DNA of 64,000 nt from a virus, in UHGV virus genome UHGV-1374526. One strand, 5' to 3'. Made by a program: the position numbers and the translations under genes. Positions 2,866-52,100 of the stretch are shown in pieces. Below the pieces are notes generated by a model. That model did no database searches, was not told the DNA's origin, and worked only from the letters and a program-made list of their open reading frames with translations. The first letter of the stretch is position 1; the number at the start of each line of letters is the position of its first letter.

Positions 2866-3849
2866 ATGTGGCGGCCATTATTATCACAAACCAAAACGAA
2901 CATGCAAATAAATTATACCAATGACATGCAGAAGAGAGGGGCATTCCACCTCTTCCTCCTGAACGAAGTCCTCTACAACATGGGAGAAAGTTATGCCAGC
3001 CCGAAGGTACTTGCTCCCGTCTACTTGCAGGAACTGCTCATTCATGGATTGCTTACTCCCACAAAGAAACACCCCGCGAAGCGGAGGACGTTGGGAGAGG
3101 TCTCCTATCAGCACCGGGCACTCTTTGAGCGATTGAACAGGGTGAAAGATACGGGCTACCTCAATCCAATAGCGGAGGACATTCCCTTCCATCGAGACAC
3201 CTTGTACGGTCCCATGACCTCGATGGAACAATTCGAAACCACCGACACGGTGACGAAAATAACTCCCGAACTGCCCGAATCCCTTAACGTCCTCATCTCG
3301 CTTGTGCTTCTCAACGGCGCACCTGTAACCGAGGAATACATCACACAGCGGGCGAAAGGACCGGAGGGTAATCTGGACTTCGACTTCCGCTGGTTCAGTG
3401 CCATGTTCCTCACGTCCTGCCCCTATGGCCGTGAGCCTCGCTACTGTCTCTCCCAAGTGGGCATGGACTTTGGCTGGAAGGTATATGACTATGTTCTTGA
3501 CCACTATGAGCATGTGCCTAATGCCAGCTATTGGAGAACGAAGTTGCCAGCTACGGAATTGGGGTCTCCTTTCACTCTCAACCCCAACCCGGCTCCGGGG
3601 TTCCAATATAAACACAGCTTCATTATCCTTAGTCTCCTTGGTGACTTTATGGATGTCTCGCGCATAACGAAGTCCGACCTTGTTCGCATCCTTCAGCTCC
3701 CCGGCGGTGAGCGTAGCGTAGAGAATGCGCTCTCCGAGCTGACGTCCGAAGGTTTTGCCGAGTATGATGAAGAGACGCGTACCTATGCTCTCACCCACCT
3801 CGGCGCAGTCATGTATGGCCTATACGCTACCCGCATCATGGAAATCTAA
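2866..3849 (+). CDS. Hypothetical early protein; a C-terminal DNA-binding-like region is possible
   Basis: A 327-aa ORF sits directly downstream of the promoter. The overlapping antisense ORF 2884-3798 was rejected from context. The start could also be the internal Met at 2902. Confidence 0.45.
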   Translation: MWRPLLSQTKTNMQINYTNDMQKRGAFHLFLLNEVLYNMGESYASPKVLAPVYLQELLIHGLLTPTKKHPAKRRTLGEVSYQHRALFERLNRVKDTGYLNPIAEDIPFHRDTLYGPMTSMEQFETTDTVTKITPELPESLNVLISLVLLNGAPVTEEYITQRAKGPEGNLDFDFRWFSAMFLTSCPYGREPRYCLSQVGMDFGWKVYDYVLDHYEHVPNASYWRTKLPATELGSPFTLNPNPAPGFQYKHSFIILSLLGDFMDVSRITKSDLVRILQLPGGERSVENALSELTSEGFAEYDEETRTYALTHLGAVMYGLYATRIMEI

Positions 3850-3862
3850 TCTCTTACCTCGA

Positions 3863-30492: not shown

Positions 30493-31514
30493 ACGACGAC
30501 GAACCAAATTGTTGGACCTGCGCATACAGCAACTTCCCCGAAACCGCGGAACCCTGTGCATCCTGTGACATGTACTTTAGCCACTTTGAATCCAGTGAAC
30601 CCACGGAATCCACGGACACCGCGGCAAGCGAGGATGCACGGAGGTGCTCCCTCTGCAAATTCCGTGATATCCCGATAGTGCAATCCCCCTGCCAGAGGTG
30701 TGCTATCACTCCCGGACTTCCCTGCTTCACCTCCGATACCAACAAATTGGTAGAGATGGAGAAGTTGAAGCGGGAAGAAGCAAAGCGGAGGGAAGCCAAG
30801 ATGGCTGGTCCTACCTGTCTGGCATGTAAACATAAGGGGGTATCTATCCTAGAGGAACCCTGCATCTCCTGCAACGGCTATCAGAATTATACCCCAGATG
30901 AATCTGCGCCATGTGCCGAAGGTACGGACGAGAACGATGATGTCATCGAACCGTGCAATACTTGCACTCACCGGGATAACCTCCGTTGCAATCCTCCATG
31001 CTCTCATTGCCGACAGGAGCGGGGAATTGAGTACCCGGAATATGAAGAGGATAAAGGGGATGAAGAGGATGTCCCCTCCCCCTGCTCCACATGCAAGTAC
31101 GGGGACTTGCCCGGAACCGTGGGACCCTGTGCTTCCTGTTTCGACGAGGGGCTGGACCATCCCCTGAACTACGAGGAAGCCACGGAATCCGGGGACGAGG
31201 AATCCAAGGACGAGGATTCCGGGGTCACAGAAATTGTGCCGAAGCATATTGTTGATATGTTTGTCGAAAGAGTGGGGCAAGAGGTGCGACGGCATTTTGA
31301 AGCCCACAATGCTCATCCACGTCCTTGCCCCTACTGCGGAGAAATCCCGGAGGTCGTGGGGGAAACCATCTATCCCGGAGAGGAACATTGCTATGTCGTC
31401 TGCAACGGGGCCAAGCTTCTTCCTCATAGCATTTCCATTCATGGCCTCACTCGCGAAGAAGCGGTAGCCCGCTGGAATAGCTTCGTATTAACTATGAAGT
31501 CCCAAGAAAAATGA
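30489..31514 (+). CDS. Repetitive multi-zinc-ribbon protein (six C-x2-C-x10-13-C-x2-C units)
   Basis: CWTCAY..CASCD, CSLCKF..CQRCA, CLACKH..CISCN, CNTCTH..CSHCR, CSTCKY..CASCF and CPYCGE..CYVVCNG. Acidic linkers sit between the units. Confidence 0.5.
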   Translation: MNDDEPNCWTCAYSNFPETAEPCASCDMYFSHFESSEPTESTDTAASEDARRCSLCKFRDIPIVQSPCQRCAITPGLPCFTSDTNKLVEMEKLKREEAKRREAKMAGPTCLACKHKGVSILEEPCISCNGYQNYTPDESAPCAEGTDENDDVIEPCNTCTHRDNLRCNPPCSHCRQERGIEYPEYEEDKGDEEDVPSPCSTCKYGDLPGTVGPCASCFDEGLDHPLNYEEATESGDEESKDEDSGVTEIVPKHIVDMFVERVGQEVRRHFEAHNAHPRPCPYCGEIPEVVGETIYPGEEHCYVVCNGAKLLPHSISIHGLTREEAVARWNSFVLTMKSQEK

Positions 31515-33199: not shown

Positions 33200-33200
33200 T

Positions 33201-34232
33201 ATGGCAGAAGAGTATCAAGAGATTCCACAAGCTCCTGACCTCTTTAATCATCCCGTACCCTCGGTTCCCGTGGGTACGGAGATGTTTAATGAGGCCCCGC
33301 CATTTGATTCAATGCCGGACCCGATTGCCCCTGTCTATGGGGATAGTGATGTAGGGACGTTCCATACCCCGGTATATAATGATGACCCCCTCATGCGCAA
33401 CCGGGAAGAGAGCATGTTCGCCATTGTGTATGACCCAAAGGATTCCGGGACTAACGCAAAGGTCATGTACACCTGCGGTGTTGTCATTGATGATAATGAG
33501 GTGCATGAAATTGGAGGTGCGCCGGGGACGTTGAAGGCAGTGGATAGTGGAGAGAAAGCACCATTAGATGATGACATCGTCTGGTATGTCAATGTTAAAT
33601 CCGACCGCAAGTCCTCCACCGTGTCTAGTAAGAAAGACACCAGCGCGGACTTCTCCGTCCCCATTGCGAGGACGAGCAAGGGCAGGAACGGATATATCCA
33701 GCAACTTCACCGTGGTGCTATCTTCATTGGAGGCGGCGGTGGTGGCGGCAAGTTCCCATACAAGGTCACGACGACTAAGGAGCAGGACGCAAACAAGAAC
33801 TGGCATACCTACGCAGTTATCGAGCCGGGCGGTTTCCGTGATACCGAACGGAAGAAGGTGGAGATTGACGGGTTCAAAGACGGGGCGGCTAAGAAGGAAA
33901 TCGTAACCGACGGTGAACTTCCCGTACTCCTTGAATGGGAATACACTTGGCCCGCCAATACCGTGACGAACGCCAAGCTGGTTGTTGATGATAAGCCGTG
34001 GGATGGTAAGGAGGTAATCACTCCGATTGAGAGTGCCGAGGGAACGGGTAAGAGCAAATGCGCGATTGCCATCCTGACGGTAACGCGAAACCCGCAGGAC
34101 AATAGTCTTGACGCAACCGTGAAATCCCAGCTGGTCAATACTGGACTGGCCGCCGTCTGGTACAGCGGATATGTTGATGGCGTTAGCGGACGTGTTGGGC
34201 AATATGCAGAAGTAAGTACCGTAGCACCATGA
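33201..34232 (+). CDS. Hypothetical protein (Gly-run GGGGGGK)
   Basis: A 343-aa ORF. Confidence 0.4.
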   Translation: MAEEYQEIPQAPDLFNHPVPSVPVGTEMFNEAPPFDSMPDPIAPVYGDSDVGTFHTPVYNDDPLMRNREESMFAIVYDPKDSGTNAKVMYTCGVVIDDNEVHEIGGAPGTLKAVDSGEKAPLDDDIVWYVNVKSDRKSSTVSSKKDTSADFSVPIARTSKGRNGYIQQLHRGAIFIGGGGGGGKFPYKVTTTKEQDANKNWHTYAVIEPGGFRDTERKKVEIDGFKDGAAKKEIVTDGELPVLLEWEYTWPANTVTNAKLVVDDKPWDGKEVITPIESAEGTGKSKCAIAILTVTRNPQDNSLDATVKSQLVNTGLAAVWYSGYVDGVSGRVGQYAEVSTVAP

Positions 34233-35041
34233 AGTCTCACCTCTTACTCCCCACGAACTCGTCGAAGGATATTTCGGTTTTAATGAGGAAGAATAATCCT
34301 GACTACACTGAACAATATAAAAGTAGTTTGTGGTATGGAACCCAAGGACCCACGGTTTCCGGGCTTCCTGTACCTCTAGGTCGAGCCGTAGCTATTTCAC
34401 CAAACGCAACGCATAAACCGGGGATTAAGTGCAAGAACCTTGTGGACGCGTGGAAAGTCTTCAACACATTGAAAGGATTTAATTCCATCGCGCTTCCGGC
34501 GAAGTTGCCTAGTCAGAATGGCATTCCCGGAGGCGTCGATGCTCGTACTCAATTTCGAGTATACGAGCCAGCACTTTGGTTCGCATGGCAGGGAGTGCCG
34601 GAAGGAACTGAAATTACTCCACATGAAGTCACATTGCAGGAAGCCCGCGATTGGCCCTACTATGACGACGGCTGGCTATACCAAAACAGTACATACGGAC
34701 CACATTATGGAAGCGGATTTATGGATAATATGTGGTACATTGAATCAGAAAGTGGAGCAGTTTATCTGGATGTAAGTATCGATTTAAGCTTCAAGTATGA
34801 GAGAAAAACATCCTCTGGTGTATGGCAGACCTTTTCGATACTTGCCTATGTAGGCTACCCCATTAAATATTGGGCGAATGGGAATAAGGCTTCCATGCGA
34901 ACAGTCACATGGAGCACCACGATAGGTGGAGTAGAAGTTGACTGCCTTGGAAGTTATTACTGTTGGACCCCCTACGTTGCCGCTCCCGAAATCTCCCAAA
35001 TGAATCAATGGTTTAAGGGATTACAGTTCACGACACTTTGA
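34229..35041 (+). CDS. Hypothetical protein
   Basis: A 270-aa ORF rich in Trp/Tyr. Confidence 0.4.
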   Translation: MKSHLLLPTNSSKDISVLMRKNNPDYTEQYKSSLWYGTQGPTVSGLPVPLGRAVAISPNATHKPGIKCKNLVDAWKVFNTLKGFNSIALPAKLPSQNGIPGGVDARTQFRVYEPALWFAWQGVPEGTEITPHEVTLQEARDWPYYDDGWLYQNSTYGPHYGSGFMDNMWYIESESGAVYLDVSIDLSFKYERKTSSGVWQTFSILAYVGYPIKYWANGNKASMRTVTWSTTIGGVEVDCLGSYYCWTPYVAAPEISQMNQWFKGLQFTTL

Positions 35042-35103
35042 TATAGCAGTACAACTGGCTTATCGATTTCGTACATCGAAATGTCAGGACGTTAAACTCC
35101 CAC

Positions 35104-35154
35104 GGAACCCACGGAACCCACGGCCAAATGGTCACAATGGGTTCCGTGGGTTCC
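35104..35154. promoter_or_regulatory. Perfect 16-bp inverted repeat GGAACCCACGGAACCC-N19-GGGTTCCGTGGGTTCC (hairpin), followed by two 13-bp direct repeats GTTGTGTCATACC (35158-35170, 35185-35197)
   Basis: It is built from the dispersed CCACGGAACC motif and lies between gene 34229-35041 and the promoter at 35211. It may act as a terminator and/or operator. Confidence 0.6.
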
Positions 35155-35210
35155 TTCGTTGTGTCATACCCACTAGCGTGTGCGGTTGTGTCATACCAAT
35201 TAAAAATTTC

Positions 35211-36377: not shown

Positions 36378-36749
36378 ATGCAACTTGATTTATCTCACAT
36401 CCTGCAACTCTACCCCGTCCTGAAGGTCCTCCATTACCAGACAAGTAGTGGATTCCATCATGAACGATACGACGATGCGGTAGAAGAATTGGGCGGCATT
36501 GCCGACAGTTTCATTGAAACCTATCTCGGACTACATGGCCGCGACTGGATGGTAAAGCCCATGTCGTTGCGCCCCGTGTTGCCTGATACTTCTACTAATT
36601 GCATTCTCCTGTACAGAAATGTCATCCTACATGACATCGTTCCCTACCTCTACACCATTGCGGGGAATGAACCCGCGCTAAGGAAACTGGCAGAGGACTT
36701 CGAGCAGAGTGCCCAAAAGATTTACAGCCTACTGAACAATTACGTCTAA
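36378..36749 (+). CDS. Hypothetical protein
   Basis: A 123-aa ORF. Confidence 0.4.
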   Translation: MQLDLSHILQLYPVLKVLHYQTSSGFHHERYDDAVEELGGIADSFIETYLGLHGRDWMVKPMSLRPVLPDTSTNCILLYRNVILHDIVPYLYTIAGNEPALRKLAEDFEQSAQKIYSLLNNYV

Positions 36750-36757
36750 TAGAACCC

Positions 36758-37267
36758 ATGCCTACAACAACTCGCGTCCGAGAATTTTTCCTCTGCTCCG
36801 ATGGCCCGGAGAGCAACCCCGAAGTAATAGCCACGGTACTTCCACGGCTTGACGGGGTTTGCTCCCGCGCCCGGTCCTTGACATGGGGCGTTATTGCCTA
36901 TTCCCTCTCTCACTTCAACCTGCCCTTCGGTGTTGCCTTGGAGAACATGAGGAACGGTTATTGTGCCCGCGTCGTAGGAACGCCTACTGGGGAGGAAACC
37001 GAGGATGGGAATGAAGCCGCTGACGTTACCCCTTGGTTCATCCTGCAATCGTTCAAGACCGAGAGCGACGAATGGGACTACCGTTTCATGGCGTTGGAAC
37101 CAATAGAGGCAGGAGCCGCCATTGATATGAAGAGGGATTATCTCCTGCCCGACGGGTGGTATAAAGTCGGAGAAGAGGTAACTCTTCGCAACGATTTCAT
37201 CGCCTCCTTCTGTTGGGAGATTGCCATTCCCGGCGACACCTTAAAAGTAGAAACCGCAAACGCATAG
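36758..37267 (+). CDS. Hypothetical protein
   Basis: A 169-aa ORF. Confidence 0.4.
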   Translation: MPTTTRVREFFLCSDGPESNPEVIATVLPRLDGVCSRARSLTWGVIAYSLSHFNLPFGVALENMRNGYCARVVGTPTGEETEDGNEAADVTPWFILQSFKTESDEWDYRFMALEPIEAGAAIDMKRDYLLPDGWYKVGEEVTLRNDFIASFCWEIAIPGDTLKVETANA

Positions 37268-37271
37268 ACCA

Positions 37272-37526
37272 ATGAAGAAGACCAACGATATTAGTATTGT
37301 AGATAATAAGAGAGTAGGAATCCTCAAGGTGAAATATGATGGAGATACCTTTGCCATCTTTAACTATTGTCGGGAGGGAGACGAGAAGGAACAGTGTTAT
37401 CCCACGCGCGAAAGGGCTATAGAAATGGCGAAGATGGTTGCTCGCCATCTCATCCACGCGAATCCCGTTATGACAGAAAGGGGCATTGACCTTTACCCGA
37501 CAGACTGTACAATCCAAGACGAATAA
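37272..37526 (+). CDS. Small-protein paralog family, member 1 (divergent)
   Basis: Shares the ...F.YC.....G...T...A.K.A..I... core with members 2-6. Confidence 0.45.
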   Translation: MKKTNDISIVDNKRVGILKVKYDGDTFAIFNYCREGDEKEQCYPTRERAIEMAKMVARHLIHANPVMTERGIDLYPTDCTIQDE

Positions 37527-37529
37527 ACC

Positions 37530-37769
37530 ATGAACGACAAAGTAGCTATTTTAGAAGACAAAGGATTTGGATTCTTCCGAGTAACTCACTGTGGAAGTGT
37601 CATTGCAGATTTTCTTTACTGCACAGGCTCTGGTGAACAAGGATATATGACACGAGATTCCGCAAAGAAACTGGCAACGAAGATTGCCCGCTACGTAGTT
37701 AGCAGAGGGACAGTTTGTACCATCGAGGGAGTATCACTTAACCAAATCATTTTCAACATCGATGACTGA
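37530..37769 (+). CDS. Small-protein paralog family, member 2
   Basis: GFFRVTHCGSVIADFLYCTGSGEQGYMTRDSAKKLATKIARYV. Confidence 0.5.
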   Translation: MNDKVAILEDKGFGFFRVTHCGSVIADFLYCTGSGEQGYMTRDSAKKLATKIARYVVSRGTVCTIEGVSLNQIIFNIDD

Positions 37770-37998
37770 CACTCTAAATATTACCACCATAGATGACCCC
37801 GATATCGGGTTTTTCTGGGTCCTGCTTGAAAACTGTTGCGTTGCCACCTTTTACTATTGCGTGAAAGATGATAGTGGCTTCTTCACCAAGGAGCAAGCTA
37901 AGAAACTAGCCAACAAGCTCGCCCGCAAAATTGAGAAGAGCATGATTATCGAAACCGAAAAGGGAATCAAATTGGAAAGGAACAACATCAATGAATAA
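37762..37998 (+). CDS. Small-protein paralog family, member 3
   Basis: GFFWVLLENCCVATFYYCVKDDSGFFTKEQAKKLANKLARKIEKS. Its start overlaps the previous stop. Confidence 0.5.
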   Translation: MTDTLNITTIDDPDIGFFWVLLENCCVATFYYCVKDDSGFFTKEQAKKLANKLARKIEKSMIIETEKGIKLERNNINE

Positions 37999-38227
37999 CG
38001 ATTCAGATACCCGTGTTTATGACATCCCTACTAGCGGAATGTTCCGCGTCAGGCACAGAGGAAGTTGCGTCGCCGTTTTCAACTATTGCGTGGCAGATGA
38101 AAGCGGCTTCTTCACCAAGAAGCAAGCTAAGAAACTAGCCATCAAGTTCGCCCGCAAAATTGAGAAGAGCACGGTCATAGAAACAAAGATGGGAATCAAA
38201 CTTAAAAGGAACAATACTAATGACTGA
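37991..38227 (+). CDS. Small-protein paralog family, member 4
   Basis: GMFRVRHRGSCVAVFNYCVADESGFFTKKQAKKLAIKFARKIEKS. Its start overlaps the previous stop. Confidence 0.5.
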   Translation: MNNDSDTRVYDIPTSGMFRVRHRGSCVAVFNYCVADESGFFTKKQAKKLAIKFARKIEKSTVIETKMGIKLKRNNTND

Positions 38228-38468
38228 CACTCTAAATATTACCACCGTAGATGACCCCATTGCCGGATTTTTCCGGGTCATGCTTGAAAACTGTTGCGTT
38301 GCCGCCTTTTACTATTGCACGGAAGGCGAGGAAGGACATTTCACCAAGAAGCAAGCCAAGAAGCTGACCGAGAAGCTAGTCCGCAAAATTGAAAATAGTA
38401 CGACCATCAAAACCAAAAAAGGATTCAAACTACTTAAACCGAAAGGGAACGACAATGACCAACGATAA
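38220..38468 (+). CDS. Small-protein paralog family, member 5
   Basis: GFFRVMLENCCVAAFYYCTEGEEGHFTKKQAKKLTEKLVRKIENS. It is nearly identical to member 3 at the N-terminus. Confidence 0.5.
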   Translation: MTDTLNITTVDDPIAGFFRVMLENCCVAAFYYCTEGEEGHFTKKQAKKLTEKLVRKIENSTTIKTKKGFKLLKPKGNDNDQR

Positions 38469-38712
38469 GTATCTGCTGGAAACCTTCTTAATGGAATACC
38501 CGCGAGCAGGAATCATTGCGGTGATTCATCGAAACTACCGTATTGCCATGTTCCCCTATCACAGGAGCGAGGATGAGAAGGGACTTCCGACAAGGGACTG
38601 CGCCCTCAACATGGCAATCGAACTTCGTGACAAGATTAAGAAATGCACGACGGAAGAATCCGACACGGGGATTACCTTCGTCGAAAAGGAACAACCAATC
38701 TTCAATGACTAA
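38455..38712 (+). CDS. Small-protein paralog family, member 6 (divergent)
   Basis: The start was moved to the internal ATG (MTNDKYLLETF...). IAVIHRNYRIAMFPYHRSEDEKGLPTRDCALNMAIELRDKIKK fits the family pattern. Confidence 0.4.
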   Translation: MTNDKYLLETFLMEYPRAGIIAVIHRNYRIAMFPYHRSEDEKGLPTRDCALNMAIELRDKIKKCTTEESDTGITFVEKEQPIFND

Positions 38713-39136
38713 CAAACGCAAATTCAAAAAGGGAGACCTTGTTCGGTTCATCAACACAGGAAGGCATCCAGAAATACGTGAGAGTTTAGCGGAGGGTTCC
38801 CTAGTATACGTCCAAGAAGAGGAAGGTATGGACCGTCGCATCCTTGTCAAGACCGGGGATGGGACACATAAGCGGTTCCCCTTCTATGAGTTTGAGCTAG
38901 TGGAAGAGACCAAACATGAAGTCTTCGTCCGATACACACGGGACGAGGCTATCATCCTCTTCAACTATCAGCCCGTTCTCCGCATACCTACCAGATATAA
39001 GCTGGGCGACCAAGAGGTCGATATGTGCTGGGAAGTAGAGGGCTGGGCCAAGTGTATTGTTGAAGACCTCAACGAGCATGTCATGTTGCCAGATATAGAC
39101 AAAACCAAAAACGAAAATGGAACTGGGAAAGTATAA
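38543..39136 (+). CDS. Hypothetical protein; N-terminus paralogous to the next gene
   Basis: KFKKGDLVRFINTGRHPE compared with RFKCGDVVLRIDTGRCGM in 39117-39572. It overlaps member 6 in another frame, so its boundaries are uncertain. Confidence 0.3.
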   Translation: MPCSPITGARMRRDFRQGTAPSTWQSNFVTRLRNARRKNPTRGLPSSKRNNQSSMTNKRKFKKGDLVRFINTGRHPEIRESLAEGSLVYVQEEEGMDRRILVKTGDGTHKRFPFYEFELVEETKHEVFVRYTRDEAIILFNYQPVLRIPTRYKLGDQEVDMCWEVEGWAKCIVEDLNEHVMLPDIDKTKNENGTGKV

Positions 39137-39572
39137 GAACAGATTTAAGTGCGGCGACGTTGTTCTTCGGATAGATACGGGAAGATGTGGCATGTGTGGG
39201 GATAGCATCCCAACAGGGTCTATCCTCCGGGTAATGTCCGACGAGGATGTTGCTGGTGTCGTTCGTGTCCAATATCCCCAAGCGAATGATGAAGACGAAG
39301 AGATACAGGATGTTATGTGGTACGAAATCGACCACTTACCCGCGAAAGCCAAGGTAGAAGAATTCTCGGATGCCGTGAGGGTGTCCATGAATGGGAACGC
39401 TATTGCCACCATTCTCACGGACATTGCCACCCCATTGGGCACTCTTCATTTCGAAAGCTGGGCCAGAGAAATTGCCCAGTCGATGGCGAACATTATTAAC
39501 CTTCAAATCTCATTGGGGAAGCTAACCTCGGATGGAATCAAAGTAGAAAAAACTAATGACAAGGAAAGATAA
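39117..39572 (+). CDS. Hypothetical protein (paralogous N-terminus)
   Basis: See 38543-39136. Confidence 0.35.
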   Translation: MELGKYKNRFKCGDVVLRIDTGRCGMCGDSIPTGSILRVMSDEDVAGVVRVQYPQANDEDEEIQDVMWYEIDHLPAKAKVEEFSDAVRVSMNGNAIATILTDIATPLGTLHFESWAREIAQSMANIINLQISLGKLTSDGIKVEKTNDKER

Positions 39573-40323
39573 GATAAAGGAAATACAGAAGTGGGCGGGA
39601 ACTACGCCCGATGGCATCCTTGGTGATAAGACCATTGATGCTATATGGAAGAAGATACAACCCACGGAATCCACGGTTCCCGATGAACAACCCAACGATT
39701 CCCCGGAATCCGCGGGTCCCGCGGCATACGTGTCTCCGGCAGAGCTTGTCCGCAAGGGCATGGCTAAGAAGATTCTCAACATGGAGGACTACAAGATTAC
39801 AGGTCCCGATTCTCTGCGCGTAACTCGCCTCCCCTCCGGTGACGGCGGTGGCAAGTGGGAGATTGCAGGTATCTGTGATGGGATTGAACCCAAGGAATTC
39901 AATCTAATCAAATCCATGATGGACCGGGGCGACAGGGATGCGGCATGGGAGGAATGCCTCCGCTATGTTCTCGCCAATACGGAACCGTTGGTTGCCAAGG
40001 GAGTTGCAGGATGCTACGCCATTGAGTTCATGCTTCGTGACATGACCTTCAACATGGGTGTGGCGGGAACGACTAAGGTCGTCCAGCGCATGCTCGACAT
40101 TGATATTGATGGCAAGTGGGGGAAAAATACTCAAGCCAAATGGACAGACGCCATTCAATCATGGGATGAAAAGGAAGTTCTCGATTCGCTGGACCGCGCT
40201 TGTCGTGCCCGCTATTGCTCCATTGTAAGAGCCAATCCGGTGAAGGCGAAGTTCCTTACGGGCTGGTCCAACCGATGCAATGCACGGCTTGCCTACGCTC
40301 TTACTCTGTTGTCAAGGAAATAA
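39556..40323 (+). CDS. Putative endolysin / peptidoglycan-binding hydrolase
   Basis: There are two PG_binding_1-like segments (IQKWAGTTPDGILGDKTIDAIWKKIQ and IDIDGKWGKNTQAKWTDAIQ). The central domain is unassigned. It is followed by small membrane and coiled-coil genes. Confidence 0.4.
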   Translation: MTRKDKIKEIQKWAGTTPDGILGDKTIDAIWKKIQPTESTVPDEQPNDSPESAGPAAYVSPAELVRKGMAKKILNMEDYKITGPDSLRVTRLPSGDGGGKWEIAGICDGIEPKEFNLIKSMMDRGDRDAAWEECLRYVLANTEPLVAKGVAGCYAIEFMLRDMTFNMGVAGTTKVVQRMLDIDIDGKWGKNTQAKWTDAIQSWDEKEVLDSLDRACRARYCSIVRANPVKAKFLTGWSNRCNARLAYALTLLSRK

Positions 40324-40743: not shown

Positions 40744-41252
40744 AACTATTCAATCTGTTCCGAAAAAGCCACGAGCAGGAACAACTCGAAAACGAGTTGA
40801 CCCAGAATCTTAATCAATTACAGGAAAGCATCCGTGCGTGTACTGAAAAACTCCGCTCAAGGAATCGGTTCTATGCCTCCCTTCCTATTGGTCGCGAGGG
40901 TGAGCTGAAACTGCCCAGAAACCAATGGGCCTATTTTTTACGGGGGAAAGTAGGAATTCGTTATGACGGAGAAACCCTTACCTCTTCGGTTACACAGGTT
41001 AAAACTCGTGAAGAAGTTCAACTGCCAAGAATTATTGACGCGGAGAGAAGTCATAAATTACTTGTCATACGAGGATATGTTATTGACAGGAGAACAAACC
41101 GCACCTATTATCAGGGCGAGACAGTAAGTTTTCAGCGGGGAGAACCAATGCAATTAACGTTGAACGGGCATATTAGCATGATGTGGACACCCCCGCTTCC
41201 CGATGCAATTATGCCGTTCTATCAAACCAATATACATGGCCTTGATTCCTAA
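40740..41252 (+). CDS. Hypothetical coiled-coil protein (spanin-like by position)
   Basis: The N-terminus is heptad-like (EQEQLENELTQNLNQLQESIRACTEKL). The start overlaps the previous stop. Confidence 0.3.
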   Translation: MKLFNLFRKSHEQEQLENELTQNLNQLQESIRACTEKLRSRNRFYASLPIGREGELKLPRNQWAYFLRGKVGIRYDGETLTSSVTQVKTREEVQLPRIIDAERSHKLLVIRGYVIDRRTNRTYYQGETVSFQRGEPMQLTLNGHISMMWTPPLPDAIMPFYQTNIHGLDS

Positions 41253-44118
41253 CACTCCGGCCTCCAACCCACAGCCTCCGACGATACCCATTGGAACCAC
41301 GGATTCCTCGTGGCGCAATGGGTTCAGTCCTGACAGGCCAATGGGTGAGCCGATAATTAACTTTCCCACTCCTGTGGTAAAGAACGTGATGTTCTTCGTT
41401 GAGAGGATTGCCAAGAATCCCAGCGAGATTACCATTGAATTGGGAACGCCGTTCGTACCCACCGCAGGTACGACCTTCCTCCCGTTTATGCGGGATGCAG
41501 TTCTCGTGCATGTCGAACCCGTCAATGAGGCGGCGAGACAGCACGTTTATCGTTTCTACTACATGGTCCCGCCGGAACAGCAGTTCCGATATAACATTCA
41601 GGACATGAAGAAAATCCGTGACGGCTATACGTTGAAAGATACTGCCGCTACGGGTAAGTTCATGGGTCCGGATGCAGACACGGAAGAGTTGAAGGACTTC
41701 TACGAGATTACACGGGAATGGGTGGAACCCACGGATTCCGCGTATGCCCCGCTCCCCCTTGGCTCGTTTGACCCCAGCAACGAAAAGCTTGACCCTGACT
41801 TCTATGACCAGCATTTCTACACGGCATACGATGCCCAGCTGGTATATGAAGAAGTAGCCCAGTTCGAAGAGGAACACCTGCGCAAGTACTTTCGTAAGGT
41901 CATCCGTGTGTATAAAACCCTGCCGGGACCTGTGGTTAAAGAGTTCGTCCCTTATAACATTTGGCAGAAGGGAGATACGGTGTGGGATGAAGGTGGTCCG
42001 GGAACGAACCAGCCCGAATCTGAATGGGTGGCGCAGCCTGCAATTAAGTTATCAAGAGAGGTCTGGGCCGCGCCGCTTTGGCCCGTCGATGGTGGAGGGA
42101 AGGAACCGGGTCAGGCCCGCATTCCTCACATGCCCCTCCTTGAACTGGACAATAAGCCCGTTAGTGCTGGCTGGGACAAGGGCAGTTATCCGAGTACGCA
42201 GATGTACACCCTTGTATCTATGTACAAACGGAACAGTAACATTGCGGAGAAAGAGGAACAGAACAGCCTCTCCGGTAATTGTTGTAACCCTGATTCCCGT
42301 TTTGTCCGGTGCATCAACACAACCGTGACGACTAGCCAGTCCGTTGACTGGACAGCAAACGGCGATGTCCCGGCGATTGACCCCCCGGACCCCAGCGAGA
42401 ACTGTAGCCAATGGCGTGTAGATTCCTCTGTGGTAGTACATGAAGGGTACTCTCATAAGGAAACGCGAAAGAGTTGCACCACCTACGACCAGATTGATGA
42501 ATTCTGGGAATCCTCATTCGATAGGATAACCAATCAGGTCTATCCTGTACTGCGGAAGATTGTACATAATCCGAGCACTGACTTCGATACTGATTGGCAG
42601 AATGAAGGATTCACCAAATACACGGATGCCGTGGGCAATACCTACTATGGCCGTAAACTGGAATCCCCGGAATCCGTGGCTCCCATTACTATCCCGGACT
42701 CCGCTTGGGAGAAGATAGGCTACAACCTTGCGGACTTCACCGTAGAAGAGGAACCGACGTTTAATACCAAGATGCTCACCGGACTGTCCATGATTAACGG
42801 ATGGAACGACCCAGCCTATCCCCAGTTCTCTGACTACTTCGCTATGCTTGGTAGCTTCACCTCCGACAATAAGGGAGTCCCACGTGGTTCTCTCTACAAC
42901 GTCCGGTTTAAGGGTCAACGCTGGTGGCAACTCTGGATTCAAAACGAGATGCCCACAGAAATGTCTCCCGGAACTATCACCGCCACTCCCTTCTATCATG
43001 CTCCCAATCCTGACGGCCCTTGGTTCTCACAGGATGGGGTTTATAAGGTAAGGGGCGAAATGATGATTAACGATGTCCTCTATGGCGAGGGAGTTACGAG
43101 CAATGTCTGGACATTCCCCGTAGGTTTCATGGATGGTACGCAGATATATAAGCGGAAGGCCTATAACCCTGAAATGAAATTTACCACAGGGGCATTACCT
43201 ACAGGTATTGGGAAGGCGTTCACCACGGTGGAGAACGGAGAATTACTTCTCACCTGCTGGGTACTGAACAGCAATAAGGTTGCCATCAATGGGGAGATTC
43301 CCATCATGATGAATAGTACGAAGATATTCGACATCAATGTATCTAGCTCTGATGCTCCCAGTACCACGCCGGAACCGAACATAAGCACAACTACCGTGGC
43401 TAAGGCAAAGTATACCGTTGGCAATTATGTATTAGACGCGCAGGTAGTGAATAACCTCAACATCACTTACAACCGGAATAAGTTCCCATTCTTCCAATTC
43501 ACCATCACGCTCTGCTCTCTCCGCGGCAATACGTTCAAGGTCACGCAGGGGGATAAGATTCAACGCGTCGTCCTGCGCCAATGGGTGAACCCCTGTTACG
43601 CCGTAGATAGTTACATGCAGATTCCGGGAATCGGGTACTACAAAAAATATACCACGACGATGAACTACAGTTTCCCTGCCGTGTTCGGTTCGGTTAGTTG
43701 GGTTCCGTGGAATACGAGGCCCGACCTTTCTGGCAAGAATGCTGGACAGTACTTCCCGCAGACCCGGATGATGAGGGACAGTTACTCCGGCCCCTGCACC
43801 GCCGTGGTAGAGGAAGCCTTCTCCCCTGACGGAACATGGCCTAAAGGCTGGGGCCTTGGGACGTCGGTACAGTTCACGACGAACAGTGGATATTTCTCTT
43901 CACCGCTTTGCGATTACCGTCTGCCCGCATGCCTCCACGGCCCGCTGGCTATAACCGTAGTCATTGGCAATCAGGACGCCAAGTGGCTTCCCGGCGCGTT
44001 TAATACGGCCTTTCCGGGGACTACCCACACAGATTGGAAACCCGTGACCTCCTATTACGCATCCCCGTGGAACGGGGGCATGATGTGCAAGAAAGTAACC
44101 ATTTATCCACCCAGTTAA
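41236..44118 (+). CDS. Large virion structural protein (tail/adaptor-like)
   Basis: It is ~960 aa, rich in W/Y/N/T, and sits before the ejection-protein cluster. The start was moved to the internal ATG at 41236. Confidence 0.4.
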   Translation: MALIPNTPASNPQPPTIPIGTTDSSWRNGFSPDRPMGEPIINFPTPVVKNVMFFVERIAKNPSEITIELGTPFVPTAGTTFLPFMRDAVLVHVEPVNEAARQHVYRFYYMVPPEQQFRYNIQDMKKIRDGYTLKDTAATGKFMGPDADTEELKDFYEITREWVEPTDSAYAPLPLGSFDPSNEKLDPDFYDQHFYTAYDAQLVYEEVAQFEEEHLRKYFRKVIRVYKTLPGPVVKEFVPYNIWQKGDTVWDEGGPGTNQPESEWVAQPAIKLSREVWAAPLWPVDGGGKEPGQARIPHMPLLELDNKPVSAGWDKGSYPSTQMYTLVSMYKRNSNIAEKEEQNSLSGNCCNPDSRFVRCINTTVTTSQSVDWTANGDVPAIDPPDPSENCSQWRVDSSVVVHEGYSHKETRKSCTTYDQIDEFWESSFDRITNQVYPVLRKIVHNPSTDFDTDWQNEGFTKYTDAVGNTYYGRKLESPESVAPITIPDSAWEKIGYNLADFTVEEEPTFNTKMLTGLSMINGWNDPAYPQFSDYFAMLGSFTSDNKGVPRGSLYNVRFKGQRWWQLWIQNEMPTEMSPGTITATPFYHAPNPDGPWFSQDGVYKVRGEMMINDVLYGEGVTSNVWTFPVGFMDGTQIYKRKAYNPEMKFTTGALPTGIGKAFTTVENGELLLTCWVLNSNKVAINGEIPIMMNSTKIFDINVSSSDAPSTTPEPNISTTTVAKAKYTVGNYVLDAQVVNNLNITYNRNKFPFFQFTITLCSLRGNTFKVTQGDKIQRVVLRQWVNPCYAVDSYMQIPGIGYYKKYTTTMNYSFPAVFGSVSWVPWNTRPDLSGKNAGQYFPQTRMMRDSYSGPCTAVVEEAFSPDGTWPKGWGLGTSVQFTTNSGYFSSPLCDYRLPACLHGPLAITVVIGNQDAKWLPGAFNTAFPGTTHTDWKPVTSYYASPWNGGMMCKKVTIYPPS

Positions 44119-46102: not shown

Positions 46103-49100
46103 ATGGCTATTGACTTTAGTACCGCCAATATGTCCGACTTCACTCCGAAGTCGGGAAGCAGTATTGCACGTGAACAGCGAGCCGCAGAAAGGCACGCCGC
46201 GTGGCAAGAGACGCAAGCGCAGAAACAGCAGGACCGAGAACAGAAAGCACTGGACCGCGAGCAAAGGTTAGCGGAAAAGAAACAGACCCGTGCCGAGAAG
46301 GGAGCGACGGCGACCGCAGACTATGACACCTTCCTCTTTAAGTCTGTTGATGACTTTGCGGAGAAACAGAAAAAGGATGCGGAACACGCAAATAATGTAG
46401 AATGGCAAAATAAATCCCGCGCCCATACGGAACAAGAATGGAAAACCGCCGAGGAAAATAAAGCCCTCGACATCTTGAACAAAGGAAACCGTGGGTACAG
46501 CTTTGAGGGAATCGACTACATGAAAGACTATGTAGACCGCGGGGAAGATGCGCTGGTCGATTTGAAGGCCGCTTCCCGCGGTGATAGCGAGGCCATTAAG
46601 AAGCTTGCCAACAATACGGGACTTACCGTTGTGTCTTCTTCCGAGCTTACGCCTACGCACCCCACCTTCTTATCCCGCTCTGGCTTCGGAAGTGGAGAGG
46701 ACGGGAACCCCGTCGTAACGGAAAAGTTCCTCGCCATTGCCGCGGACAGAAACCGTAACGCAAAGGCGGTTGCCAAAGGCATTGCCAACACAATGGAAAA
46801 GGCCCGGAAGGATTACCTCAACTCGAATCTAGATGTTGGAACGGGTAAACCTACGGCGCAAGCCATCGAGACCGCACCTATTGCTTACACCGCAGAAGAA
46901 ATAGAAAGCGTCATCAATACGATTAGGCGCGAAGACATTGGCAACTATCGTGCCGCTAAGGCTCTTTACGACAAACACCGCTCTTCTTCGACGGAAGGCG
47001 TGCAGAAGAAAACCCCCAGCCAAACGAGCGTGGGGGAGCTTGGCGTTGGCGAATTCTCTGATTCAGCACCTTCATTTACTGGGAATGTTTTTGCTGAACT
47101 CGCCAACCTTTCCAAGTCTCCCAGCAAAATGTTCCAGCTTGTCCGCGACTACGGGGATTACCTTTCCCGGAGTACGGAAGATATTGAATCCCCGGAATCT
47201 GCTACAGCGGATGCGAAACAACTCCATACAGACCAAGCAAAACTCATTTCAAAAAAAGAAAAACCTGTTGAGGATAGGATTCGTGAACAGATAGAAACAG
47301 CCGACAAAATCGTAAGACGCCTCGAAGAGGACTACACTGGCCTTCCCTATCTCGAACTTCGCGACGCGCTTCTCAATCCAGAGGCCGCGGCCTCTGCCCT
47401 TCTGTCTTTAGTCCCCGGTGCTGACATGGACGCAATACGTGCACGGGCAAAGGTCATTACCGAGGAAGTTCGCCGCCAGAAGGACCGCCCTCTGACCGTC
47501 GAAAACCCCGAACAGATTGGCATGAGTGAGGCTATACTGGAAGCCGTGGCCACAAGGTTTCCGGGGGTTCCAAAATCTGCCCTGCGCCAAGCGGGAGTAA
47601 CCAAACTGATTCAGGACTATACCGCCAAAGCCACGCCGAAAGGCACTCTCATGGATGCAGTCAAAGGCGCACTGGCTAACTACCGAAGCACGGCGGGACA
47701 AATTGCGGACGTACTTACCTTCCAACCGGATAATAGTGTGGGTAAGTACGCCGACCCAATGAGCTTGATGGAATGGAGGAAGGGAACGAGGCGTGGCTCA
47801 TGGTGGTATGGCATGCCGGGCGGCCCGTCCTTTGAAGTCGGACCGGAGAGGTTGAAGGAATACATGGCCCAGTACCATATTGAAAGTACTCGCGATGCCC
47901 TCAACTCCCTCTCCCATGCCGCACGTATGGGTGACTTGGGCGTTGGCCGTGGCAGTCTCTTTGCGTACAATCCGCACACCAAGGAAGTTGATACGAACGC
48001 CACGCTCGAACTGAATCCCAATGCTCTCTACAATGATAAGCTGATGGACCAGAGCATTGAGGCTCTCCGTGCTAGTGGCGCGGACGAGAAGCTTATCAAT
48101 CGCACCATTGAGAAGTTCCAGAACCTCCGCAAGAAATCCGCACAGGAACTTGTGAAGGACAACATGGCATTGGACGAGACGCTGGGGACGCTTCGCGATA
48201 CGTGGCTTGGCTCCGGCTTGCAGTTCAACCCTGTCTTGACTGAATCCATGAAGCATCTGGACAAGTACCTTTCCTTCAAGAATTTCTACAACGAACAGAA
48301 GGAAGCGGGCAAGAGCGACGAGGACATCCTCTCCGCATGGCAGGAGAAAGGGCAAGCCACCTTCGATTCTGTTCTCCGTGGGTTACAGATAGGTACACAC
48401 AAGGCAATCGACCTTGGGACAAGTACCGCCTATGGTGCTCTTCTCTTTGCACAGAATGCAGTTGGCAGTCGTGCGGCGATGGAACATACCCGCACCCTCT
48501 GGGACCAGCTGAACAAAAAACAGGAAGCAGAAGCCGAGTTGGTTCGAGGCAATATCCTTGCGGACTATACTGCGGAAATCGCTAACCTCGGCTACCAAAT
48601 GGTAGCAACCGCGGGGGCTGGTAAAGTTGGTGGCCTCGCTGGCCGTGCACTGACACGTACCGCGCTCAATAAATTCATGAAGGCAACGGCTAACGTCGTA
48701 GCGAAGCGGGCCGAAGCTCTTGTCCCTGCCGCCCGTCCGGGATTGGCGGGACGTTTGAGTGGAACTATTCAGCGCAACCTCGACAACCTTGCGGCGTTGA
48801 ACCTCGAACGGGCAGGAGCCGGAGCCGGGGTAAATCTTAGCATCATCTCGCAGGTTGCACCGAATGCTTACTCCGACATCTTCTATACCATTTATGATAG
48901 GGAGATGGAAGGGAAGGAACCGACTGCCGAGAACACGAACAGGGCACAGAGCATTGCCAACATGCGTGCTCTCTTTGGTGCGGCTCTCGTATCTACTGGT
49001 AGTACTCTCATCAACAACCGCGCAGGTATGGATTCCTTCATGCGTAAGATTGTTGGGGCTAAAAACCTTCGCGGTCAATCTCCATTCCAAACTCTTGAAC

Positions 49101-52100
49101 GGAAGATGGCCGGATGGAGAAGCAAGCCATTTAAGGAGATGAACACGAAGGAAAAGACGTTTGCCGTTGCTTCCTATCTGTACAGCCAGAGCAAGGCCGT
49201 AGTGGAAGGAGCCACCGAAGAACTGGCAGACGAATTCCAAGAGTGGGCGTTTACCGAACTGGTGAAGAACGGAGAAATCTCCGAATCCTCTATTGCCACT
49301 ACTGACCAAGTGATTAGCACAGGCATGAAGATTGCTTTCCTCGGAGGTATCGGCGGCTACGTTGGTAGCCACTTAGCTGGTGAAGGGAACATACGTTTCC
49401 AAACCGAAGCCGCTCCCACTCTCGATGTAAAGGATGCTACTTCCATGCTACCGGATATTACGAAAGATGCGAGCAACATCATCGAGGAAACGGGCAAAGC
49501 CATTACCAAAAACAATGTGCCGGAAAGCTTGGTAGAAACCGGAAAGAAGGTTATCGAGATTGCCGGGGAGAAGGGAGATGCCGCGGAAGTTGCCCGCGAA
49601 TGGGTGGACAAATCCATTGCCCATGAAAGTCTGGCAGTCTCCGATGAAACCCGCAAGGCGTGGGTGGAAGGAGCAACCCGTATGGGCATCAGCAACTTCA
49701 CCCAGTTCCGCAACCTAGTGGAACGGGCCTCCGAAATATATACCTATGAGGGCAGTGCCGCGGCAAGCTCATTCATGGCAGAAGCCATTAACGACCTGCC
49801 CAATACCCTGTCATTCCCAAATAAGGAAAACCTCGACACCATGCGCACCATGCTTTCGGAGGCCCTTGATGCTATGGGAGACCGGGTTCAGGTTATCGAA
49901 GTAGACGACGACCTGTCCATCATTACTACAGGGGACGAGGACCTTGATGCCGCCATTAACGTTATTAACGGATTGACGGAAGCCGCGGCTACCACGGAAC
50001 CCAAGGAATCCCCGGCTACCGCGGAACCCACGGAATCCCCGGTAGCTATTGCCCGGAAGGAGAGGGACAATGCTATTGCCCCCATCACTGCTATGGTAGA
50101 GACGGGAGTAGTTACCCCAGAAGCTACCGCTTCCGTGGATAACATGGATGCGGCAATCACCTCGTTCGACCCCAACACCGGGGCATGGCTCTCATCCGGT
50201 TCACCTCTGGACCGCGGCGCGAAGCTCGTCTCCCTGAACGAGATGACCGGGATTAACGCCCCCATGATTACCAGCAACACGGGAGAAACCGTTGTCATCG
50301 CTCCGCACGCAAGCATGTACAACACAGGTGAGGGAGGGACACCCAGCACCAAGTGGGGGGACAAGGTCTCCGCTCTCAATCTCCCGACGGATGGGACTGG
50401 CGCAAATGCCTACGGCACGCTTCGCGGCCTTCAAGTTAATGCCTCCCCCGCACAGGCCGCGGCCATTGATGGAGTGCTCCGCGCACTGCATGCCGCTGGT
50501 TTGGACGTCGCTATCCGTGCAACCAATGCCCCGGCGAACATCTCTTCCCCTGCCAGTATCACCTACATGAACGGCACGGACGGGAAGCTTGTCGGCGGTG
50601 TCATTGACCTGTACGTGAACCGGGATAACCCGATTGAAAGCGTAACGGGAACGGTACTACACGAAGTCATCCACCTCATTGACCGTCATCTTCGTACCAC
50701 CAACACGGACTATTCCCAGCGGATGGATAGGATTAGAAGCGCGATTGCAGAGAACTACAACAACATTGTCGATAGTCTCTCCGCTATGTATGACGCTAGC
50801 GTGGACATCAATGAGATGAACGCCATCGCCGCGCTCGCTTCCGACCTCAACTACGGTCTCCGCGGTGCGGACGAATTTGCCAGTGTCGCGTTCTCCAATC
50901 CTGTCATGAACTTCATGGTAGCGGAAGCTAGCGGAGACAATATCACCATCACGGATTTGGCTCGCTATGCCGAAGCGGCGGGAGGCCGGAAGCCCGTGCA
51001 CGTGCGCCTCGTCGAATGGCTTAAAGATTTGATTAGGGACATCAAAGATACTGCGGACGATATGGACGGAACCACCGCCGCAGAACGCGTGGCTGAATGG
51101 GATTCCTATGTGGCCCGCGTCGCGGACATGACCCCCGGCAAGTGGTTCGATATGCCTCGCACTCCGTCATGGAAAGTAGATGATACGGATTATACTATGG
51201 GCAACGGGGTAGATTATTTTAACCCGATGGCCTATGAGACCGACATGACCCGGAGATTGTCCTTCGGCCTTGGCGCAGAAATCATTGGCACGAAGGCCGG
51301 GAACTGGGTAACTAGTATTAAGAACGTATGGCAAGGCGTGTCTAAGGGCTTGGACAAAGCAGGCATCAATGTTAAGTCCGAGGAACAGAAGCTGGTTGTG
51401 CTGGAACAAATGGCCAATGTTAATGCGGCGTATGAACGCAGTATTAAACGCATTGACAAAATTGGTGATATGCTTCAACGCCGTGCGGATAATCTGGGCT
51501 GGGATGCCGCTACGCGAAAGAAATGGAGCAAGTCCATTCTTGACATGTCGGGGAATATGGACAACGATATTGACCCTGAAACTGTTGCACGCATTAACGC
51601 AGAGGCTCAAGCAGAAGTTCGTCAGCATGAACAGACCCGCGACTTCCGTATCGCGTTGGCTAAGAAGACTGTCACCGATGCCGTCAATAGGCACGCGGAA
51701 GCGGTGCGTCTGGCTAACTCCCTTGCGCTTAATAGTGAAGGGCGATTGGAAATCAACGACATGATGCGCCGGATTAAAGACATGAGCGGCAAGGGATATG
51801 GAGCCATGCTGGACAAGCAGGTAGCTCTCCCCATGCTCTCCCAGCAGATTCACAAATCTCTCTCCGACCTTGGCTCTCGTATCTCCGCGACGGGGGATGC
51901 CAATCTGGATATCACCTACTTTGGCCTTGCCCGCGACACGCAAAACTATCTCGCGGATATGATTAACGAAGTGGATAGTCCCTTCTCTATGGATGAACTT
52001 CTGGACAGGTGGTCCAACCTTCGCAATGACTTCCTCTATGCGGAGAGTACAAACCATCCCGTCATCGCTCCTATGATTCAGGACATCGCTAAGGCACGGG

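Follow-up and report, generated by a model that had tools for sequence, protein, structure and literature searches.

Six small tandem genes of an uncultured human-gut phage encode paralogous proteins that vary in number, order and composition between close relatives. The genes lie in what we call the window, a stretch of 64,000 nucleotides (nt) of the UHGV virus genome UHGV-1374526 that covers most of a ~70-kb phage genome. Together with two further genes, 7 and 8, they form a 2.3-kb family block at 37272–39572, in which eight + strand genes are packed with practically no intergenic space between a 169-amino-acid (aa) gene and an endolysin-like gene. The whole block is a lineage-specific, largely dispensable accessory cassette that is absent from a sister clade of the phage, and one small module recurs in all, or nearly all, of its eight genes. 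We put the probability at roughly 0.4 that the paralogs are small stoichiometric binders with different specificities, forming a putative accessory repertoire for host interaction. The genes of the block and its two flanks are listed here with the isoelectric point (pI) and the score against a hidden Markov model (HMM) of the family.

36758..37267, + strand: conserved 169-aa upstream flank gene; left edge of the block, outside the family, kept in both clades
37272..37526, + strand: paralog 1, 84 aa, pI 5.7; diverged member; HMM 112 bits
37530..37769, + strand: paralog 2, 79 aa, pI 6.5; HMM 110 bits
37762..37998, + strand: paralog 3, 78 aa, pI 5.1; the copy modelled with AlphaFold2; HMM 117 bits
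37991..38227, + strand: paralog 4, 78 aa, pI 9.9; 58% identity to paralog 3; HMM 120 bits
38220..38468, + strand: paralog 5, 82 aa, pI 9.1; 64% identity to paralog 3; HMM 118 bits
38455..38712, + strand: paralog 6, 85 aa, pI 5.4; most diverged; last unit in most related arrays; HMM 111 bits
38705..39136, + strand: gene 7, 143 aa; predicted N-terminal SH3/KOW-like barrel (aa 3–76), then a C-terminal domain of ~70 aa
39117..39572, + strand: gene 8, 151 aa; predicted N-terminal SH3/KOW-like barrel (aa ~10–75), then a copy of the paralog module (aa 83–151)
39556..40323, + strand: endolysin-like gene with PG_binding_1 and PG_binding_3; right flank of the block, outside the family

The six small genes are paralogs

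The six small proteins (78–85 aa) align end to end, with identities that range from 24% to 64%. Nine columns of the alignment are invariant: the start methionine, G16, V20, A28, F30, Y32, T45, A49 and G71 (paralog 1 numbering). The family HMM gives 110–120 bits to each of the six (E ~1e-33 to 1e-36) and finds no match beyond them in the 64-kb window. The paralogy is therefore confirmed as real and far beyond chance. A first-pass annotation, made from the sequence alone, had described six tandem paralogs with a common core, and the full-length alignment reproduces the consensus that it quoted.

The copies have diverged to different degrees. In BLASTP comparisons, paralogs 3 and 5 are 64% identical (E 2e-36), paralogs 3 and 4 are 58% identical, and paralogs 4 and 5 are 50% identical. 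Paralog 1 shares 27–38% identity with the others. The range for paralog 6 is 29–38%, and its similarity to paralogs 3 and 5 is undetectable by BLASTP. These values bear out the earlier remark that members 3 and 5 are nearly identical at the N-terminus and that members 1 and 6 have diverged the most. At the DNA level, paralogs 3–5 form a 210-nt repeat with a spacing of 229 nt and 71–80% identity.

The array varies in number, order and composition between relatives

Using the endolysin gene as an anchor, we collected 40 loci from IMG/VR. Thirty-two belong to the same clade as the window (endolysin 84–100% identical) and eight to the sister clade (50–56%). At the eight sister-clade loci (L040–L048), no gene separates the 169-aa gene from the endolysin gene: the stop of the former overlaps the start of the latter by 17 nt, just as far as the stop of gene 8 does in the window. 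All eight cassette genes are absent from these loci, where the family HMM gives no match even at an E value of 10.

Among the 32 relatives, the number of units per locus is one (1 locus), two (2 loci), three (2), four (7), five (9), six (9) or seven (2); the array thus consists of homologous units, arranged head to tail, whose number varies between close relatives. The order of the units varies as well: one locus (L018) reads 2-3-4-5-1-2'-6, and some arrays are headed by an extra divergent unit type that is 37% identical to paralog 1. Many units are chimeric, with an N-half nearest to one window paralog and a C-half nearest to another. About half of the database homologues of 70–90 aa are chimeras of this N-half/C-half kind, some of them present on 7–26 contigs. 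Identical variant arrays were recovered from different samples (L012 and L013; L015 and L025), and because identical variants recur in this way, most of the array variation is real. The most conserved DNA stretch of the units encodes F-T-K-K-Q-A-K-K-L-A-x-K-L-A-R-K-I-E, and is the likely crossover zone. A single disrupted unit was seen among the loci (L026).

The first-pass annotation had placed the small genes among the expanded, rapidly diverging families of phage accessory regions. The absence of the block from the sister clade, the copy number of 1–7, the chimeric units and the relaxed constraint on them all agree with this description.

The paralogs are predicted to adopt a beta-beta-beta-alpha fold

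The structure of paralog 3 was predicted with AlphaFold2 on a 121-sequence alignment. The mean predicted local distance difference test score (pLDDT) is 78.6, with values above 90 in the core. Three antiparallel strands (residues 7–12, 17–22 and 25–31) pack on one helix (residues 43–66), the topology also found in AP2 and integrase arm-binding domains, and the last ~15 residues are unstructured. The prediction thus gives the family profile a single, confident common fold. The small genes might also have belonged to a known structural family such as a tail fiber assembly factor; no such match was found in PHROG, Pfam or NCBIfam.

Conservation on the model is concentrated at G16, at the inward-facing strand residues F18, V20, A28, F30 and Y32, and on the inner face of the helix. 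The helix cap, T42-[KR]43-x-x-A46, is also conserved: residue 42 is threonine in 89% of the non-redundant units and serine otherwise, and residue 43 is always basic. The C-terminal motif T65-x-x-G68-[IFV]-x-[LF] is strictly conserved, yet it has no intramolecular role in the model and is unstructured in both monomer models (pLDDT 43–53). The outward-facing strand positions are the most variable columns. The exposed face of the sheet is not basic, and the outer face of the helix is mostly basic in paralogs 2–5. The copies therefore have in common the hydrophobic core, the helix cap (T-[KR]-x-x-A) and the motif at the C-terminus (T-x-x-G-hydrophobic-x-hydrophobic); they differ in the exposed strand positions, the loops and the net charge (pI 5.1–9.9).

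The best fold matches of the model are nucleic-acid-binding domains. In a per-member Pfam scan, the commonest sub-threshold family is PF14657, with matches in 50 of the 121 members (best E 0.013); among the window paralogs, only paralog 4 has a listed match to it (14.1 bits, E 0.037). PF14657 (Arm-DNA-bind_4) was formerly called the AP2-like integrase domain and belongs to the same fold class as AP2. Its gathering threshold is 22.3 bits, which was not reached by any of the 121 family members scanned; the positive control, the phi11 integrase, scores 47.4 bits. We also compared the family with a profile of 12 phage integrase N-termini taken from tblastn hits; a protein search seeded with the phi11 arm gave 12 near-identical fragments only. 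The hhalign alignment with these 12 arm domains is local, covering 21 columns at the G-F-x-T-K-x-x-A turn and the start of the helix (probability 15%, P 0.0018), and the global alignment has a probability below 1%. No recombinase domain is present in the block, where the units are either free-standing proteins of 78–85 aa or fused to an SH3-like barrel. AP2/ERF (PF00847) was not among the 25 Pfam families listed with matches up to E = 10, and the exposed sheet positions, which in AP2 hold conserved Arg/Trp contacts to DNA, are variable and not basic. On the model, we assign the paralogs to a beta-beta-beta-alpha fold class of the AP2/arm type, a likeness of folds that does not by itself establish membership of a family.

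Two other candidate families were rejected. An hmmsearch against PDB sequences gave nothing significant, the nearest look-alike being the helix of the PKR dsRNA-binding domain (STKQEAKQLAAKLA) at E 0.89. Besides this high E value, the dsRNA-binding domain (PF00035; PKR, TRBP) is disfavored by the lack of an N-terminal helix alpha-1, the lack of a Pfam match and the loss of the motif in paralogs 1 and 6. The YegP/DUF1508 (UPF0339) family gave neither a Pfam match nor a close fold match.

Genes 7 and 8 combine a barrel with a second domain

The N-termini of genes 7 and 8 are related, as the first-pass annotation had noted: hhalign aligns them with a probability of 81% (E 1.3e-5), and phmmer gives cross-hits. 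Both N-domains are predicted as five-stranded barrels, and neither has a Pfam KOW or SH3 match.

In gene 8, residues 83–151 match the paralog profile from end to end, across ~70 columns that take in the G-I-K-V-E tail (hhalign probability 81–85%, E 6.5e-6 to 1.3e-5). The gene 8 model (pLDDT 75.7) contains strands at 79–82, 86–91 and 94–100, a short hairpin, a helix at 113–132 and a disordered tail. Moreover, proteins exist in which paralog N-parts are naturally fused in register to the C-part of gene 8 (P0153, P0154, P0157); with the C-termini of either gene 7 or gene 8, such in-register fusions comprise P0151, P0153, P0154, P0166 and P0082. Given the profile match, the model and the natural fusions, gene 8 carries a seventh module copy behind its predicted SH3/KOW-like barrel. 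All array-bearing relatives that were examined have this gene.

Gene 7 is an optional member of the block. L023 and L024 lack it, L027 has lost its N-domain, and in L029, L035 and L064 it is reduced to the C-domain, as a free-standing gene of 75–78 aa. The predicted strand, F-N-Y and helix pattern of this C-domain resembles the family, and in some relatives the domain looks like an array unit; gene 7 possibly holds a second module copy fused to a barrel. However, hhalign detects no homology of this C-domain to the six paralogs or to the gene 8 C-domain, with a probability below 1% in four comparisons, so that the evidence for such a copy is circumstantial.

The gene 8 barrel has an insert, G-R-C-G-x-C-G-D-S-I-P (aa 22–32; 39180–39210), that is absent from gene 7. 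Its two cysteines, C24 and C27, are invariant; a third cysteine of gene 8, at position 13, is replaced by tyrosine in some homologues. This C-x2-C insert may be a metal-binding or redox loop.

Selection on the units is purifying and relaxed

Over 481 pairs of units with 85–99.5% nt identity, the median ratio of nonsynonymous to synonymous substitution rates (dN/dS) is 0.37, and the estimates overall are ~0.37–0.5. For a site set defined by the structure, we took alternate residues of the three strands, with random nine-site sets as the control. The outward strand positions give 0.87 and the inward positions 0.45, with 0.51 overall. Selection is thus purifying but relaxed, and the outer face of the sheet is least constrained. 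A first site set had pointed to positive selection (pN/pS 2.07); this result was discarded, as its sites had been picked post hoc by variability and the unbiased set gives 0.87.

The family is confined to one phage lineage

The window encodes a primase-helicase, a family A DNA polymerase, a helicase, an exonuclease and the large terminase, and contains no tRNA and no Rfam family. Neither megablast of the region nor tblastn with TerL gave a match in INPHARED, and the DNA polymerase is at best ~26% identical to that of any cultured phage. Genome-contig scans aimed at the host, with the endolysin and with the DNA polymerase, gave no match. One contig with a family member is labelled human gut metagenome.

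The exact paralog 1 protein is present on 151 public contigs, and identical six-gene arrays occur on contigs of 42–70 kb from several samples. At 90% clustering the family has 199 homologues, none with a Pfam domain; at 50% identity there are 23 clusters among 1.84 billion protein representatives. For the paralogs, no family in Pfam, PHROG or NCBIfam reaches threshold. They match none of the PHROGs of known function and only two PHROGs of unknown function (E 0.04–0.05), and Foldseek against BFVD gave no match at E <= 0.001. By these searches, the family appears confined to this phage lineage. Neither the protein family nor the architecture of barrel plus module is in Pfam, PHROGs or NCBIfam; tandem accessory arrays of variable copy number are already known in viruses.

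A putative repertoire of small binders

The binding function and biological role that we infer for the paralogs can be put as follows. Each paralog would be a stoichiometric binder with its own specificity, docked to a common partner by the shared C-terminal motif. The repertoire would modulate host factors, for instance as counter-defense proteins or host-range determinants, and would serve neither an essential structural nor an essential replicative function. Homologous recombination inside the conserved core would delete and duplicate units and recombine their N-halves and C-halves; with such recombination ongoing, the phage population would carry many versions of the array. We have seen no unexpected mechanism so far.

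Several points weigh against such a repertoire. The paralogs show no similarity to any characterised anti-defense or host-takeover protein, and the host-takeover or anti-defense role suggested in the first-pass annotation has gained no support. The cassette lies within a string of co-directional, overlapping genes that ends in the endolysin gene, which suggests late rather than early expression; classical counter-defense genes are usually early. Since the model finds its best fold matches among nucleic-acid-binding domains, the ligand might be DNA or RNA and not a host protein. For the exposed face of the sheet, the test of positive selection does not reach significance (p ~0.10 against random sets). 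The comparison of the two clades has no outgroup, so that gain of the block here and its loss in the sister clade both fit. Finally, some of the chimeric database proteins, among those found on a single contig, may be artefacts of short-read assembly.

A more specific version of the repertoire, combinatorial in nature and naturally maintained, strikes us as rather improbable. All eight proteins would share a scaffold and a C-terminal docking peptide that fits a single hub, which may belong to the host machinery or to a complex of the virion or of ejection, and the shuffled halves would be the specificity surfaces. Recombination in the core would then act as a generator of diversity that matches variable host defenses or receptors without a reverse transcriptase. 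If so, the array would be a recombinational analogue of the diversity-generating retroelements and a stable, diverged counterpart of the "gene accordions" known from the laboratory.

In abundant gut phages, most genes are without known function, and accessory arrays are the usual site of phage-host conflict genes. The block is a well-delimited case for study, with conserved flanks, a natural knockout in the sister clade, a natural series of 1–7 copies, natural chimeras and a confident fold of 78 aa, and it adds an unannotated protein family and an architecture of SH3-like barrel plus module to the catalogue. If the paralogs bind host defense or host-range factors, their natural variants would be a ready structure-function series, and the array would show how phages keep diverged repertoires by recombination.

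Alternative explanations

The paralogs could instead be DNA- or RNA-binding regulators of the AP2 or integrase-arm type, each with its own phage or host site, that tune late transcription, replication or packaging. We consider this possible, with odds of about one in four. The sub-threshold PF14657 matches and the local alignment with the arm domains both point this way. The threonine at position 42, the basic residue that always follows it and the helix itself, with an outer face that is mostly basic in paralogs 2–5, fit a helix cap that contacts phosphate, and the barrel that partners the module in genes 7 and 8 belongs to a KOW/SH3-like fold common in nucleic-acid-binding proteins. However, three of the six paralogs are acidic (pI 5.1–5.7), and the exposed sheet face, with which AP2 and arm domains contact DNA, lacks basic character. 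The sole strongly over-represented DNA motif of the genome is denser in the array-less sister clade. An essential regulator, moreover, would neither range from one to seven copies nor be absent from the sister clade. If the paralogs do bind DNA, the block would be the first case in a phage of free-standing AP2/arm-like domains arrayed in tandem.

It is rather unlikely that the paralogs are late virion-associated proteins, either packaged and ejected effectors or assembly and decoration adaptors, whose C-terminal motif docks to the capsid or tail. Such a role would suit their position: they are co-oriented, overlapping genes of late type, directly upstream of the lysis cassette and of the 971- and 3231-aa presumed virion proteins. 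The strictly conserved C-terminal motif is unstructured in the models, as a docking peptide would be. A precedent is offered by the ip genes of T4, a hypervariable cluster of internal proteins with a common short targeting sequence, among them IPI*, an injected anti-restriction protein. Like the T4 internal proteins, the paralogs are small, variable accessory proteins with a short shared motif; expression is late in T4 and only suggested to be late here. The motif is C-terminal here and N-terminal in T4, the two groups have no sequence or fold relation, and neither a capsid-targeting sequence nor a protease site is evident in the paralogs. Nor was there a PHROG or Pfam structural match, and the block is absent from a sister clade that has the same structural genes.

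That slipped or unequal recombination has left the array behind as something neutral or selfish, functionless and decaying, is very improbable, in spite of its dispensability in the sister clade, its highly variable copy number and its relaxed constraint, because the frames are intact in all units but the one disrupted in L026 and constraint is present (dN/dS well below 1; median 0.37, core 0.45), old paralogs with 25–38% identity at the extremes keep an identical core and motifs, and exact proteins recur on up to 151 contigs from many samples.

Comparison with known arrays and folds

Recombination-driven tandem arrays of a counter-defense gene have been described for tifA of T4 (PMC9391042) and for K3L of vaccinia virus (PMC6115191), and are precedents for the repertoire proposed here. 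These accordions and the present array consist of head-to-tail copies of a small accessory gene, and in each the number of copies shifts by homologous recombination between close genomes. In the tifA and K3L arrays, the copies are young and near-identical, were selected in the laboratory and act on a known target. The copies described here, in contrast, are old (24–64% identity), occur in natural populations and are shuffled as half-genes.

The paralogs differ from PF14657 and PF00847 (AP2) domains in several respects. They score below the curated thresholds, and they stand free in tandem where those domains are joined to recombinases or nucleases. Half of the paralogs have an acidic pI, and the family has an additional, strictly conserved C-terminal motif. 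The N-domains of genes 7 and 8 resemble SH3-like and KOW barrels, including the KOW domains of NusG and Spt5, the N-domain of Hpy99I and YorP of the SPbeta prophage. This resemblance is one of fold class only; gene 8 differs from these barrels in its C-x2-C insert and in the fusion to the paralog module.

Gene starts and junctions

Two start sites were revised. Gene 6, i.e. paralog 6, had been given a TTG start at 38389 and gene 7 a TTG start at 38543; we place them at ATG 38455 and ATG 38705, the latter giving a protein of 143 aa. The ATG starts are preferred because public gene calls on identical contigs and conserved N-termini agree on them. From left to right, the junctions of the block are gaps of 4 and 3 nt, followed by overlaps of 8, 8, 8, 14, 8, 20 and 17 nt. 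The overlaps are of the ATGAATAA / ATGACTGA type, and the final one is formed by the gene 8 stop and the endolysin start. The 4-nt ATGA overlaps reported earlier are therefore not present, as every junction is either a 3–4 nt gap or an 8–20 nt overlap. Translational coupling, which the first-pass annotation had suggested, is compatible with such close overlaps.

The cassette genes (starts in 37260–39560) have no clear Shine-Dalgarno sequence, and their upstream regions are A-rich, e.g. aaaggaacaacatcaATG. A Bacteroidota host would fit these features, as would coupling purely by termination and reinitiation. Scans for promoters and terminators near the block gave nothing informative above background. 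On the - strand, paralogs 3–5 each contain a 40-aa open reading frame (ORF) that begins with MLLGEE (37774–37896, 38003–38125 and 38232–38354, one per unit). In all likelihood these frames merely come with the repeat and are not genes, since the pattern of constraint matches the + strand frames.

Other features of the window

The variable stretch that precedes the array position is a hotspot of plasticity in general. In L008, the neighboring genes just upstream are different ones. In the sister clade, L043 has a CTP_transf_3 cytidylyltransferase and two unknown genes at 3099–4897, a region syntenic with ~33200–35040 of the window, which instead holds unrelated genes of 343 and 270 aa. Closer to the array, two genes upstream of it, a 123-aa gene (36378–36749) is kept in both clades; it has a weak match to PHROG 858 ("starvation-inducible transcriptional regulator", E 3e-5) and a below-threshold match to DUF5856. 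The 169-aa gene between this gene and the array ends in TLKVETANA, which resembles the family motif. An origin of the family from the 169-aa gene was rejected, with an hhalign probability below 2%.

The 9-nt-periodic motif CGGAAYCCNCGG occurs at 38 sites on both strands with at most one mismatch, compared with an expectation of 3.0 +/- 1.8. Examples are found at 1–54, 2552–2705, 30588–30632, 35096–35155, 39658–39723, 41716–41751 and 49977–50050. Within + strand genes the motif is in frame and encodes linker-like E-P-T or E-S-T repeats; it also occurs in non-coding gaps (35096–35131), and may be a DNA-level signal beyond the linker codons. A link between this motif and the array was rejected because the motif is denser in the sister clade, which has no array (14.3 compared with 8.2 per 10 kb).

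Downstream of the lysis genes, two long ORFs of 971 aa (41203–44118) and 3231 aa (46103–55798) have no Pfam or PHROG match. Their products are presumably giant proteins, of a type not yet described, that belong to the virion or serve ejection.

The left end of the window is rich in repeats. It starts with 5.5 tandem copies of ACGGGTTCA. About ten tandem units of 18–19 nt (TAAGTCYRGMCTAAC plus TTTT) follow at 103–303, and three exact 42-nt units with a promoter-like box, TTGCTATAATG, at 451–587. Taken together, 103–587, at one end of the genome map, has the look of an iteron or origin region with a promoter repeated three times behind it. An 89-nt direct repeat with 79% identity (1484–1572 and 1962–2050) lies in the left region, most of which is non-coding; it has no Rfam match and may represent a pair of structured RNAs or regulatory elements.

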